64,000 bases of DNA. It comes from Amoebidium appalachense. Lineage: Eukaryota; Protista; Ichthyosporea. Below the pieces are notes generated by a model. It ran no database searches, was not told the DNA's origin, and was given only the letters and a program-made list of their open reading frames with translations. Positions 5,430-62,990 of this stretch are shown here, piece after piece. The stretch's first letter is position 1. Every line of letters starts with the position of its first letter. Both the position numbers and the translations under genes were made by a program. Location of the stretch: positions 4,984,310-5,048,309 of the forward strand of contig CAVNZM010000008.1 of the NCBI GenBank assembly GCA_963693365.1, read 5' to 3'.

Positions 5430-9691
<4,262 letters not shown>

Positions 9692-11322: not shown

Positions 11323-24841
<13,519 letters not shown>

Positions 24842-28966: not shown

Positions 28967-41774
<12,808 letters not shown>

Positions 41775-42377: not shown

Positions 42378-46126
<3,749 letters not shown>

Positions 46127-50645: not shown

Positions 50646-50933
50646 GTGTCGTGGTGAGCGGCCCCAGGGGGGGGGGGGGGGGGGTTAGAATGTGTCACAG
50701 AGTACAACCGCAAATTCAGGACGAAAGACACAATGCACGCATGGTTAAAGCGGGAACATGCACTGGTAGTACGTATGAAATAAAGTAGAGCCCGTCCATC
50801 GGGCGGGGAGGATCAGTATAACTGAGTCGCATTTGGCAACAGACGCATGCACACACACACAAGAGGGAGAGAGAGAGCGAGCGAGAGAGCGAGAGAGTGA
50901 GAAACACACACACACACACACGCATACGCACAG

Positions 50934-51126: not shown

Positions 51127-51257
51127 AGAGAGAGAGGGGGGGGGGGAGGGGGGGGGGGGGGGGGGGAGTTAGAATGTGTTATAGAGACGAAGAACACAGC
51201 AATAACCGACAACACAATGCAGAGTGCAAAGCACACAAGACCATGCAAACAAGCAGT

Positions 51258-51288
<31 letters not shown>

Positions 51289-52114
51289 GGGGGGAGGGGG
51301 GGGGGGGGGAGGGGGGGGCCATGAGATCCCAAGAAATAGCTCAGCGTAACAAGTGGATGTGCCACATGCACCGGGGAGGGGGGGGGGGGGGGGGGGTTTG
51401 AATGCGGAACACGGTACGAAGTGCGCATACACGAACGACAAATGCAAAGGCAAACATTCAAGTATGCAACATCAGCCATGCGCACAGCATGCGTCATAAG
51501 CAGAGCCCATCCTCAGGGAGGGCCCAAGTCATCAATTGCGTCTGAGTTTCGACCCCTTAGCCCGCGTACATACGACTCTCCAACTCAGACAGCAGCATCA
51601 ACTGAACTTGGGAGGGTCAACCCGTCTTGATCAAAGACGAGCAGGGTTGCTTATGCAAGCAAGGTGAGCAAAACGGTGAATGTGTGTGTGCAAACCAATG
51701 CAGTGCAGCGGAAAATGAGTATGTGCTTACAGATGCACGACACAGAGCAACCATGCCCGGTTGCATGGAAGTAAAGCGGTCTTCACACAGTGGTCTGTCC
51801 TGAAAGGACACCTCTGAAAGAAGACTGGGGGGGTTTGAATGCGGAACACGGTACGAAGTACGCATACACGAACGACAAATGCAAAGGCAAACATTCAAGT
51901 ATGCAACATCAGCCATGCGCACAGCATGCGTCATAAGCAGAGCCCATCCTCAGGGAGGGCCCAAGAGGGGGGGGGGGGGGGGGATGTGAAAGCTTAGCAA
52001 ATGATGCAGTTCATCACTTTCTTTGTTTTTCATTTTTCTATTTCATTATCTTTCATTTCTACTCTTGTTTTTTATATTTGTTATTTTAATTATTTTTTAG
52101 GCTTGTGTGCGCTT

Positions 52115-52154
<40 letters not shown>

Positions 52155-52672
52155 ACGCGCATGTGCGTGTGCGTGTGCGTGTGCGTGTGCGTGTGCGTGT
52201 ATGTGTCACGCACCCGTCCGTAGCCATGATCATGAAGCCGTCTTGTGCATGGATCTCACGGTCCATCACCTCGGGCTCTGGTATTACCCCGTACTGCCTG
52301 CACACAGAGCCAAATTTTAATATCAAGCCTTATTATCATCCCGTACTCACTGCACGCACAGTTCACATTTTGAGGTGTTTGTAATGCATGGGCTGGCTAG
52401 TGCCATTGACCTTTAGTTCTAAAGAGCTCGATGCAAATACAACAATCTGCCTGCTACATTGCACAACCCACCCACACACACCCCCCACCCCCCACCCCCA
52501 CCCCCACCCCCACCAACCCACACCCACACACACACACACACACACACACCTCAGGCTGCTGTCTCCGAATGCCCGTGCCACGGTCAGTTTGCCGTTGACT
52601 CTTGGCAGACCCTCACTGTCTTCGTATACCTCCCCTCCACCTGCCCCTCCCAATGAGCACCCTTCCTTCATC

Positions 52673-52719
<47 letters not shown>

Positions 52720-55449
52720 ACCACACACACACCACCACCCCTCCCCCCACCCGCCGACCCCGGCCCCAACCACCCACCCACACCCACGCACCCACGCACC
52801 CACACCCACACCCACGCACACACTCCCAAGAATAAAAGTCGCCGCCATTCCAATAATCACAACCCATGCACCCATGCCACACGAGACGCCTCTCCTTTAA
52901 AGGATGCAGCTGTGTTCTGTGGCTTTCGGTCTAGAAACTGTACAGGAGTACGTGTATTCGGCTGGGTGGAGAGGGAAGGGGGGAGGAGGGGAGGGGGGGG
53001 GGGGGGGGGTTTTGAATGCGGAAAACGGTACGAAGTACGCATACACGACGAGAAGCATGGTGCAGGACACATGCAAAGGCAAACATTCAAGTATGCAACA
53101 TCAGCCATGTGCACAGTATGCGTCATAAGCAGAGCCCATCCTCAGGGAGGACCCAAGTCATCAATTGCGTCTGAGTTTCGACCCCTTAGCCCGCGTATAT
53201 ACGACGCTCCAACTCAGACAGCAGCATCAACTGAACTTGGGCGGGTCAACCCGTCTTGATCAAAGACGATCAGGGTTGCTTATGCAAGCAATGTGAGCAA
53301 AACGGTGCAGATGTGTGTGCAAACTAATGCAGTGCAGCGAAAAATGCGTATGTGCTTACAGATGCACGACACAGAGCAACCATGCCCGGTTGCATGGAAG
53401 TAAAGGGGGGGGGGGGGGGGGGGGGGGGGGGAGCACACATTACAGGACATATTGATTTGTTTTTGGAGGGGCGCGGAGGGGGGGGGGGGTTTTGAATGCG
53501 GAACACGGTACAAAGTACGCATACACGACGAGAAGCATGGTGCAGGACACATGCAAAGGCAAACATTCAAGTATGCAACATCAGCCATGTGCACAGTATG
53601 CGTCATAAGCAGAGCCCATCCTCAGGGAGGACCCAAGTCATCAATTGCGTCTGAGTTTCGACCCCTTAGCCCGCGTATATACGACACTCCAACTCAGACA
53701 GCAGCATCAACTGAGCTTGGGCGGGTCAACCCGTCTTGATCAAAGACGAGCAGGGTTGCTTATGCAAGCAAGGTGAGCAAAACGGTGAAGATGTGTGTGC
53801 AAACTAATGCAGTGCAGCGAAAAATGTGTATGTGCTTACAGATGCACGACACAGAGCAACCATGCCCGGTTGCATGGAAGTAAAGCGGTCTCCACACAGT
53901 GGTCTGTCCTGAAAGGACACCTCCGAAAGAAGACTGGGGGGGTTTTGAATGCGGAACACGGTACAAAGTACGCATACACGACGAGAAGCATGGTGCAGGA
54001 CACATGCAAAGGCAAACATTCAAGTATGCAACATCAGCCATGTGCACAGTATGCGTCATAAGCAGAGCCCATCCTCAGGGAGGACCCAAGTCATCAATTG
54101 CGTCTGAGTTTCGACCCCTTAGCCCGCGTATATACGACACTCCAACTCAGACAGCAGCATCAACTGAGCTTGGGCGGGTCAACCCGTCTTGATCAAAGAC
54201 GAGCAGGGTTGCTTATGCAAGCAAGGTGAGCAAAACGGTGAAGATGTGTGTGCAAACTAATGCAGTGCAGCGAAAAATGTGTATGTGCTTACAGATGCAC
54301 GACACAGAGCAACCATGCCCGGTTGCATGGAAGTAAAGCGGTCTCCACACAGTGGTCTGTCCTGAAAGGACACCTCTGAAAGAAGACTGGGGGGGTTTTG
54401 AATGCGGAACACGGTACAAAGTACGCATACACGACGAGAAGCATGGTGCAGGACACATGCAAAGGCAAACATTCAAGTATGCAACATCAGCCATGTGCAC
54501 AGTATGCGTCATAAGCAGAGCCCATCCTCAGGGAGGACCCAAGTCATCAATTGCGTCTGAGTTTCGACCCCTTAGCCCGCGTATATACGACACTCCAACT
54601 CAGACAGCAGCATCAACTGAGCTTGGGCGGGTCAACCCGTCTTGATCAAAGACGAGCAGGGTTGCTTATGCAAGCAAGGTGAGCAAAACGGTGAAGATGT
54701 GTGTGCAAACTAATGCAGTGCAGCGAAAAATGTGTATGTGCTTACAGATGCACGACACAGAGCAACCATGCCCGGTTGCATGGAAGTAAAGCGGTCTCCA
54801 CACAGTGGTCTGTCCTGAAAGGACACCTCTGAAAGAAGACTGGGGGGGTTTTGAATGCGGAACACGGTACAAAGTACGCATACAACGCGGAGGGGGGGGG
54901 GGGAGGTGAAGAATACATACATGTCTTGACATGATGGTGGGAGGGGGAGGGGGAGGGGGGGCAGCACATATTACAGGAAACATTAACTGCCGGGGGGAGG
55001 GAGGGGGGGGGGGGGGCATATAACACTTCAAGACACATCCGATTGGGGGGAGAAAGGGAGGGCGAGAAGGGGAGGGAGAAGGGGGGGGGGGGGGGGGGGG
55101 GGGGGGTGGCATACATCTTAGCACACGTGCGCGCTCATTTCCATTGAGGAGGGTGTGGGGGTTGTTGAGCCACTCTGAACCCTCTGCACCCACAAACAGT
55201 GCCCGGCAGTCACCAACGTGTGCCAAGGCAAGGTCGTGACTGCCCTGTAAAGGAAATAAATGGGTTGGTATGGGGGTTGGGGTGGTTCAGGGTGTAGCAC
55301 AGTGTGGGGGTAATAATGATCAACGAGGACATCAAGGCACAACCCGCAGTGTGTGTGTGTGTGTGTGTGTGTTGGTGGTGGGTGGGTGGTTTTTTCCTTA
55401 TTTCTTTTTTCTTTTTCTTGTTCTTTTTTTTTTCTTTTTTTTTTCTTTT

Positions 55450-62348: not shown

Positions 62349-62990
62349 ACCCCAAAAGCTCACCCGTACAGCCGTGAAAGAGAGCATCACAATCAACACA
62401 AAATCCCGTGCCCCCCCCCCCCCCCCCCCTTTTTTTGTTGACATGCTAGTGAGCTAGTGTGTATGCGGCCAATGTAGCCGTACACGAGATGCACCCACTT
62501 CCTGGTGTTCCTCTATACCCGCCCGGTGCATCCCGGTGCCTGTGTGCAGCCAACGGGGTGTGGTGCAGCCAAAGTAGTGCACATATGTGGTGGCTTGAAA
62601 GAGCACGGTGATGCTTGTGCATGTGAGCAGCTGCATGCATACGTCGGCGGGCACGCGCACGTGTACTCGTAGGAGTGTGTGTCCCGATGTGTGCTTGAAA
62701 GTGTCCACAAGCTTGCATGTGCCCGTGTGTACAGTGACAGGCCGTGTGCACATGTCTCGTGTGTGTGCACGTGTCTGCTGAGCTGCACTTGCCTCTCCTT
62801 GACGCAGTGACCGCAGCGGGAGCCGCCATAGGCGCGAGTGATGTTCTTGCGCGTCTTTGAGATGGTGGCCAGCTGCTTGGGGCGCAGGGCCGGCACACCC
62901 TGCAGGTGGCTGCCGCAGTCGCCGCACTTGGGCCGGGACCCAGCCTTCTTCACGTACAGGTACGTGAGCTTGCCACCCGGGGTCTTGACG
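61715..62990 (-). CDS. RPL34: 60S ribosomal protein eL34, last two exons (first exon not found, probably beyond the window)
   Basis: Exon 62990-62793 encodes VKTPGGKLTYLYVKK..PKCGDCG..LQGVPALRP..RAYGGSRCGHCVKE. Exon 61781-61715 encodes RIVRAFLIEEQKIVKRFLKAKK*. The intron between them is GC-AG. Confidence 0.96.

Follow-up and report, generated by a model that had tools for sequence, protein, structure and literature searches.

The 453-bp repeat within introns of a PP2C gene in the window (the whole 64-kb stretch of Amoebidium appalachense DNA that was analysed) is probably a type-SGC retrozyme (probability about 0.6). Its hammerhead is predicted to cut within a single unit, and the element would be reinserted at poly-C by a Penelope-type reverse transcriptase acting in trans. 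Each unit holds a complete type-SGC hammerhead core that, by analogy with known hammerheads, is predicted to be self-cleaving. The evidence comes from the core itself, from the insertion junctions and from a diverged sister subfamily in which the predicted helices are kept. The positions of all features are given in Table 1.

Organization of the repeat

The 453-bp unit lies on the minus strand in tandem within 53003-54883 and carries one hammerhead core per unit. The sequence-only reading had described a tandem repeat with all three hammerhead segments on this strand, and this is confirmed. It had treated 53010-54883 as a single array. The region is in fact two insertions, the first of three units plus 42 nt and the second a truncated copy, and they are separated by a C-rich spacer of approximately 75 nt. 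The lengths of insertions 1, 2 and 3 are 1401, 406 and 577 nt. Together they contain the five intact SGC copies of the 64-kb window, which represent three distinct sequences.

The units of insertion 1 are 100, 100 and 99.8% identical and differ at one site. Both partial units of insertion 3 share seven changes that are absent from insertion 1, and they differ from each other at one site. Alleles are uniform within each multi-unit insertion (1 and 3) and different between insertions. The reading frames of the unit are short stop-to-stop stretches. The layout is that of non-LTR retrozymes, with short, non-coding tandem units that are dispersed and carry one ribozyme each. Dispersed copies of the family occur in both orientations.

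Degenerate copies and sister-subfamily fragments are also present (Table 1). Just upstream of the longest sister-subfamily fragment, at 35945-36055 on the minus strand, a CUGAGGA block is followed by GGCUCU-like letters with poly-C tracts around them. This is perhaps a third, more diverged subfamily.

Table 1. Positions of the repeat, its hammerhead core, its junctions and the host exons in the window
Feature	Position	Strand	Remarks
Insertion 1	53483..54883	-	three 453-bp units + 42 nt
Insertion 2	53003..53408	-	5'-truncated unit (98%), 406 nt, intact SGC core, poly-C tracts either side
Insertion 3	51389..51965	-	~1.3 units (96%), one intact SGC core, flanks share C17 TC
Old degenerate copies	43455..43800	+	~70%, block S deleted
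Sister-subfamily fragment	35775..35905	-	5'-truncated; block C + different 3' part, poly-C at end
Sister-subfamily 3'-end fragment	51169..51250	-	poly-C end
Shorter sister-subfamily 3'-end fragment	50685-50718
Block S, unit 2	54140..54152	-	stem III 3' strand, U16.1 (54145), U17 (54144), stem I 3' strand GGAG
Block G, unit 2	54102..54119	-	stem II 3' strand, GAAA, stem III 5' strand
Block C, unit 2	54064..54082	-	stem I 5' strand CUCC, CUGAGGA, extra U, stem II 5' strand
S-G linker	54120..54139	-	20 nt; can pair with 54063-54054 as helices IIb and Ia
Predicted cleavage site, after GUU	54143..54144	-	by analogy with hammerheads
Equivalent predicted cut sites	54597/54596, 53691/53690, 53211/53210, 51582/51581	-
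K-turn, bulged strand	54158..54174	-	C-stem 54174-54165 (bulged 54168), bulge G54164-U54162, G54161, A54160, U54159, G54158
K-turn, non-bulged strand	54085..54097	-	U54097, U54096, G54095, A54094, C-stem partner 54093-54085
Target-site duplication of insertion 1, 5' copy	54886..54903	-	18 bp, C12 TCCGCG
Target-site duplication of insertion 1, 3' copy	53472..53489	-	18 bp, overlaps the C tract at the end of the element
AAAA-C7 tract inside the unit	53936..53946	-	all three insertions have their 3' end here; priming likely at this tract
PP2C exon upstream of insertions 1 and 2	55122..55244	-	Pfam PF00481 positions 111-151
Next PP2C exon	52552..52638	-	profile 155-179; alone under the curated cut-off
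PP2C exon upstream of insertion 3	52213..52299	-	profile 179-211

The hammerhead core

The order of the blocks from 5' to 3' is S, G, C (Site-GAAA-CUGAnGA). The CUGAnGA, GAAA and UH letters and the closing pairs G10.1-C11.1 and A15.1-U16.1 are intact in all five full copies. Stem III is made up of U16.1-A15.1 and seven Watson-Crick pairs, with a pairing probability of approximately 1.0. Stem I has only 4 bp. Stem II follows the extra U and is paired at six of seven positions, with a G.G mismatch that is kept in both subfamilies; another register of this stem has two extra bases and three G.U pairs. The segment order, the A15.1-U16.1 register (8 bp) and the proportions of stem I (GGAG/CUCC, 4 bp) and stem II (6/7) are as first proposed from the letters. 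The cut predicted between 54144 and 54143 is also correctly placed, by analogy with hammerheads. As a cleavage triplet, GUU is slower than GUC. The broader proposal, that a retrozyme-like tandem repeat carries a hammerhead permuted non-circularly, is supported, and the order corresponds to type SGC as described in the accessible text of PMC10085705.

Local hairpins compete with the core pairing (probability 0.5-0.6). Stem II together with helices IIb and Ia reaches -11.2 kcal/mol, compared with -5.1 for stem II alone, and in the model this pairing of the S-G linker is a candidate stem I-II brace. The G-C linker is 19 nt long and pairs, via the hairpin described below, with sequence upstream of block S.

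A descriptor that accepts any block order, with all blocks within 130 nt and on both strands, has exactly five matches in the 64 kb. All five are in SGC order and all are in the 453-bp repeat. There is no CGS, GSC or SCG match within 130 nt, and the type I hammerhead by which non-LTR retrozymes are recognised is not among the matches. A second ribozyme on the plus strand was considered and rejected, as the descriptor has no match there. In dinucleotide shuffles of the unit, the same descriptor has 0 matches in 40,000 on both strands. Combinations of blocks from different units are all formally possible under the descriptor.

Metagenome loci that carry the core letters alone were compared with the unit. 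None of the 120 listed (approximately 970 are estimated to exist) has all three stems or resembles the unit, and the best of the 120 has stems of 4, 5/7 and 3. Family-specific patterns have no match in viral contigs and none in metagenome contigs. An Rfam search with E up to 10 returns 13 weak matches and no ribozyme family, as expected from the SGC block order.

Insertion junctions and mobility

All three insertions end where the A3-4 C7 tract of the unit meets genomic poly-C. In sequencing run X7, 65 contigs enter a G-run at position 53936. Insertion 1 has a target duplication of 18 bp, insertion 3 has C17 TC on both sides, and insertion 2 has only C-runs. From the predicted cut downstream to the C7 tract there are 208 nt, and a linear monomer released by the cut could thus serve as template for no more than 208 nt. 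Since every insertion is longer than 208 nt and spans the cut site, the template would have been either circular or an uncut multimer. The homogeneous units within insertions 1 and 3 indicate that each of these two was copied from a single template, which was either a circle or a multimer of uniform units. A (C)n target, 5' truncation, head-to-tail copies and a short tail are all present, as in non-autonomous Naiad/Chlamys elements, for which the target is (C)n or (CA)n.

The family is abundant in two of the four public runs examined, with 14,650 (X1), 5,393 (X7), 180 (X13) and 12 (X16) family contigs, figures that are not copy numbers. Head-to-tail joints are present in all four runs, and the 453-bp stretch is present in 20 of 24 listed runs (four organism codes, five studies). 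No RNA run is listed among those that carry it, which says nothing either way about expression. No reverse transcriptase or GIY-YIG domain was found by Pfam among 30 chosen stretches of the window. A rod-like, viroid-type fold of the circular monomer was tried and rejected (z -0.39 on the minus strand and -0.58 on the plus strand, 60 shuffles each).

A similar TTC(A/T)AA-C-run 3' end occurs at ten places, nine of which belong to the 453-bp family or its sister. Runs of C or G of at least 10 bases number 165 in the 64 kb (85 + 80), and elements that target C-runs and duplicate them could help to lengthen such runs. A 49-bp repeat (84%) is present in the insertion flanks at 54936-54984 and 53405-53453 on the minus strand, with poly-C at the end of each copy, and 54900-55130 contains several short units of the form 'atgtatg/tatgtg + C-run'. 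These are possibly the remains of another C-targeting element.

Host gene and neighbouring features

Insertions 1 and 2 lie within the intron that follows the exon covering PP2C profile positions 111-151. Insertion 3 lies within the intron that follows the exon covering positions 179-211, and the subsequent exon (LWDVM...) is visible. All three insertions are intronic and in the sense orientation relative to the PP2C gene.

Elsewhere in the window, an exon at 45030-45191 on the plus strand matches the RNA-binding domain of histone stem-loop-binding protein (PF15247, E 1.2e-14), and a ribosomal protein L34e exon lies at 62789-62986 on the minus strand. Of 355 matches to this 66-aa L34 exon, the best is a gene with the prefix Ihof (78%), followed by fungi at no more than 72%. 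The prefix probably denotes Ichthyophonus hoferi, and this single exon thus points to an ichthyosporean as the probable host. Minisatellites are present at 9220-9537 (26 bp, 12.8 copies), 20710-20982 (25/50 bp) and 32566-32907 (a repeat with periodic reading frames).

The extended hairpin and the sister subfamily

Stem III extends to CCCAAG/CUUGGG, and the base helix has a pairing probability of approximately 0.8. The long hairpin on stem III that was proposed from the letters is real: stem III is paired at approximately 1.0, and the hairpin is kept with changed letters in the sister subfamily. From its base, the hairpin has a 9-bp stem with one bulged base and then a 3-nt bulge (54164-54162). 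The bulge is followed by G54161.A54094, A54160.G54095, U.U and G.U, which is the consensus of a k-turn. A loose k-turn pattern occurs at three places in 200 nt, two of them besides the hairpin. By nearest-neighbour energies without k-turn terms, a plain Watson-Crick register of the hairpin is the better one, at -21.7 kcal/mol compared with approximately -18 for the k-turn register. The 94-nt hairpin has z values of -1.99 on the minus strand and -2.64 on the plus strand, so folding energy does not pick the strand. Upstream of the ribozyme, two small hairpins at 54186-54200 and 54176-54185 on the minus strand have a pair probability of approximately 0.9.

The contigs of all four runs diverge at one or both edges of 54181-54096, with three runs at each edge. 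In these contigs the sister subfamily is represented by 30 letters of each loose end, and its block S (5-20 nt) lies outside them. Its upstream piece (X16, X13) reads CUCAUG, U, UCA, AGU, GA, A, ACAGUAUC. Its downstream piece (X16) reads GAAA CUCG GGUACUGU G and rejoins the window sequence at 54095, with U54089>G in that contig. The two pieces are from different contigs and presumably belong together.

In the distal part of stem III of the sister subfamily, the eight changed letters pair at eight of eight positions. The probability of this by chance is 0.0004-0.008, depending on the number of registers allowed. In the noisier X1 consensus (agreement 0.7), six of eight are paired. The base helix is paired at six of six positions, with a double change from A-U to U.G. 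The sister subfamily retains the 3-nt bulge along with both G.A pairs, and the distance from GAAA to the k-turn is 13 nt in both subfamilies. These compensated helices in a diverged subfamily indicate selection on the fold. Support for the k-turn comes from these public contigs, and the pattern alone is weak.

Within the window, sister-subfamily motifs do not occur beyond chance. In one X16 contig the letters agree with a compact S-G linker of 3 nt and a compensated stem I of GGGG/CCCC, and a long S-G linker fits equally well from length arithmetic and likeness to the linker in the window. The stretch 54182-54226 is common to both subfamilies though both of its sides differ, and it may therefore be a conserved signal.

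Variation within the family

Among the five window copies (three distinct rows), changes on both sides of a pair are found in 0 of 41 pairs. The variable sites cited in the sequence-only reading, an unpaired stem I position and a switch from G-U to G-C (54139 U/C/A; 54084 U/C), are outside the 4-bp stem I, and the changes are one-sided. Across the four runs, 33 variable sites are listed. Two of the 50 positions in the core blocks are variable, compared with 3.6 expected (P=0.27), and three of the 82 modelled positions in the core and extension are variable (P=0.12). In a local comparison, three of 82 modelled positions are variable compared with seven of 46 others (P=0.025), for a model that was partly drawn after the variants had been seen. 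There is no listed variant of at least 1% in CUGAGGA, GAAA or U16.1/H17 in the four runs. U54081>C makes up 17% (X1) and 25% (X7) of the summed depth and disrupts a stem I pair unless the partner position is also changed. A 1% variant converts the G.U of stem II to G-C, and changes in stem II are one-sided only.

These data bear on whether the hammerhead is active. The element may be a mobile, Penelope-dependent repeat with a hammerhead that is a relic, whether weak or dead, or that acts too slowly to have an effect, and with tandems that arise via multimeric transcripts or DNA duplication and no circles. Stems I and II are weak, the core shows no significant excess conservation and five intact copies are tolerated in the sense orientation in the PP2C introns, all of which are consistent with such a relic. 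An uncut transcript would also explain insertions that cross the cut site, and the fold of the complete monomer is no more stable than that of its shuffled versions (z -0.39). This explanation is nevertheless unlikely, as the core letters are intact in 5/5 full copies with no listed core variant of at least 1% in the four runs, and the compensated helices of the sister subfamily imply selection on the fold.

Cleavage within or between units

The sequence-only reading held that the hairpin keeps the block C of its own unit away from the core, so that the block C of a neighbouring unit docks, only multimers are cut, and monomers and circles are stable. As the main reading this is unsupported. 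Published SGC ribozymes are cut as single units in the accessible text of PMC10085705, and both subfamilies have the k-turn consensus equally far from the core, a feature for which cleavage between units has no need. The block C of the preceding unit is also approximately 390 nt upstream and has a local hairpin of its own.

Standard k-turns (Kt-7, box C/D and U4) have G.A and A.G pairs after a bulge of 3 nt (PMC4382518) and an angle of 50 degrees (PMC5061560), as given in the accessible parts of these papers. A k-turn at this position would bend the hairpin back toward the core and return block C to it. In the sister subfamily 3b.3n is A.G, as in Kt-7. In the window family 3b.3n is U.U, which falls under neither of the ion-folding rules (3n=G or 3b=C) in the accessible text of PMC4382518, and the k-turn may therefore need protein or tertiary contacts.

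The estimated gap for cleavage within a unit is 14-23 Å, compared with approximately 19.5 Å of linker. This borderline estimate covers both reach and no reach, and the multimer model is therefore kept as an alternative. It is consistent with a stable hairpin that ends 2 nt before stem I, with the straight Watson-Crick register as the best computed energy, and with the formal possibility of all combinations of blocks between units. The hammerheads of axolotl retrozymes are cut far better as dimers, according to the accessible part of PMC7229834. Cleavage only in multimers is judged improbable here, and cleavage within one unit is favoured in the model.

The remaining explanation, a plain satellite or minisatellite with hammerhead-like letters by chance, has in its favour a genome rich in simple repeats and an Rfam search without a ribozyme, and it is largely refuted and highly improbable given the 0 of 40,000 shuffles, the 0 of 120 listed motif-only loci with three stems, the target duplication, the fixed 3' ends and the dispersed insertions in both orientations.

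Proposed mechanism

In the preferred reading, a retrozyme predicted to be cut within its own units, the cycle would begin with a multimeric transcript, for example by read-through from the host gene. During synthesis, blocks S and G would close stem III first, and the extended hairpin is predicted to kink at the k-turn. Block C, which is made last, would then dock in the loop of 35 nt, where it would form stems I and II as two pseudoknots, and would be braced by the pairing of the S-G linker with 54063-54054. Cleavage after GUU is predicted to free 453-nt monomers, which a host ligase would circularise. For reinsertion, an endonuclease nick in a G-run would prime on the C7 tract of the RNA; the junctions of this step are observed and the enzyme is presumed. 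The enzyme would go round the circle 0.9 to 3.1 times, which would leave head-to-tail copies that are truncated at the 5' end and a duplicated C-rich target.

Comparison with known systems

In the accessible text of Eckert et al. 2023 (PMC10085705), five SGC RNAs are cleaved as single short units at 0.007-0.19 per min. The published SGC cases there are from metatranscriptomes only, and none is from the genome of a known organism. The published search pattern requires N7=U (CUGAUGA) and linkers of up to 8 and 15 nt, with the extra U included. The 453-bp unit is outside this pattern because it has N7=G and linkers of 20 and 19 nt.

As far as type SGC and HRIMA-1 are described in the accessible sources, the unit shares with them the S-G-C order, the full core, the extra U between A9 and G10.1, and stems I and II as pseudoknots on stem III. 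A typical S-G linker in HRIMA-1/SGC has 3 nt, and the brace there is formed by the G-C linker with the 3' flank, whereas the S-G linker of the unit is 20 nt. Unlike in HRIMA-1, the G-C linker of the unit pairs upstream of block S via the k-turn hairpin. The HRIMA-1 traits given in those sources (a fixed stem I of AUGUU/AACAU, a short S-G linker and its brace) are absent from the unit. By analogy, the core of the 453-bp element would act in the manner of HRIMA-1, and it lies outside that family. The accessible part of the Eckert 2023 supplement (PMC10085705) contains neither 'k-turn' nor 'kink'.

Animal non-LTR retrozymes have type I hammerheads and are 150-450 bp long in the accessible parts of Cervera & de la Pena 2020 (PMC7229834) and Li et al. 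2026 (10.64898/2026.07.22.740005). Going by these descriptions, the 453-bp element resembles them in its non-coding tandems, one hammerhead per unit, dimers to multimers and proposed Penelope dependence. It differs in having an SGC and not a type I core and an ichthyosporean host, and in that its cleavage is predicted whereas their cleavage and circles have been demonstrated.

The Chlamys and Naiad elements target (C)n, show 5' truncation, carry a tail of 30-40 bp and have non-autonomous copies arranged head to tail (PMC8557442, Craig et al. 2021). In the accessible text of that paper they are without canonical hammerheads, and some Naiads are flagged 'HHR_core' or 'HHR_half_core'. MRC1-like non-autonomous Naiad/Chlamys elements, as described there, have insertion traits in common with the 453-bp element. 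Four ichthyosporean genus names are absent from the accessible part of the PMC8557442 supplement.

In the accessible text of PMC13725137 (November 2026), the only sources given for such variants are Eckert and one paper on a fungal virus. A literature search in which subscription papers were mostly beyond reach and bioRxiv supplements were not visible found no paper that describes SGC ribozymes in genomes, and for type-SGC hammerheads it returned Eckert 2023 alone. The search also returned nothing on Amoebidium with Penelope or on ichthyosporean hammerheads, and its ichthyosporean Penelope matches are unrelated. No natural k-turn hammerhead was found by title or by the opening of the abstract.

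Significance

In print, natural non-circular permutation is known only from virus-like RNAs of environmental origin and from a small number of candidates in metagenomes or bacteria. The 453-bp element is a genomic, high-copy and recently mobile example in a eukaryotic microbe, and it offers an accessible substrate with different wiring. It bears on a stated puzzle, as Naiad/Chlamys elements are able to spread with no canonical hammerhead, and the SGC order escapes standard descriptors. With five predicted cut sites in the sense orientation in introns of one gene, the locus is also a test of splicing against intronic ribozymes, or of cellular gating.

A further proposal is speculative and doubtful. 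The k-turn-wired SGC hammerhead might be the missing ribozyme of the Naiad/Chlamys branch and older than animals, with a U.U k-turn that gates cutting by a protein of the L7Ae family (15.5K/Snu13), and it might be a genomic source for viroid-like SGC ribozymes. If this is true, a protein-gated ribozyme would leave host pre-mRNA and circles intact until bound, and such genomic elements would feed the SGC ribozymes of environmental viroid-like RNAs.
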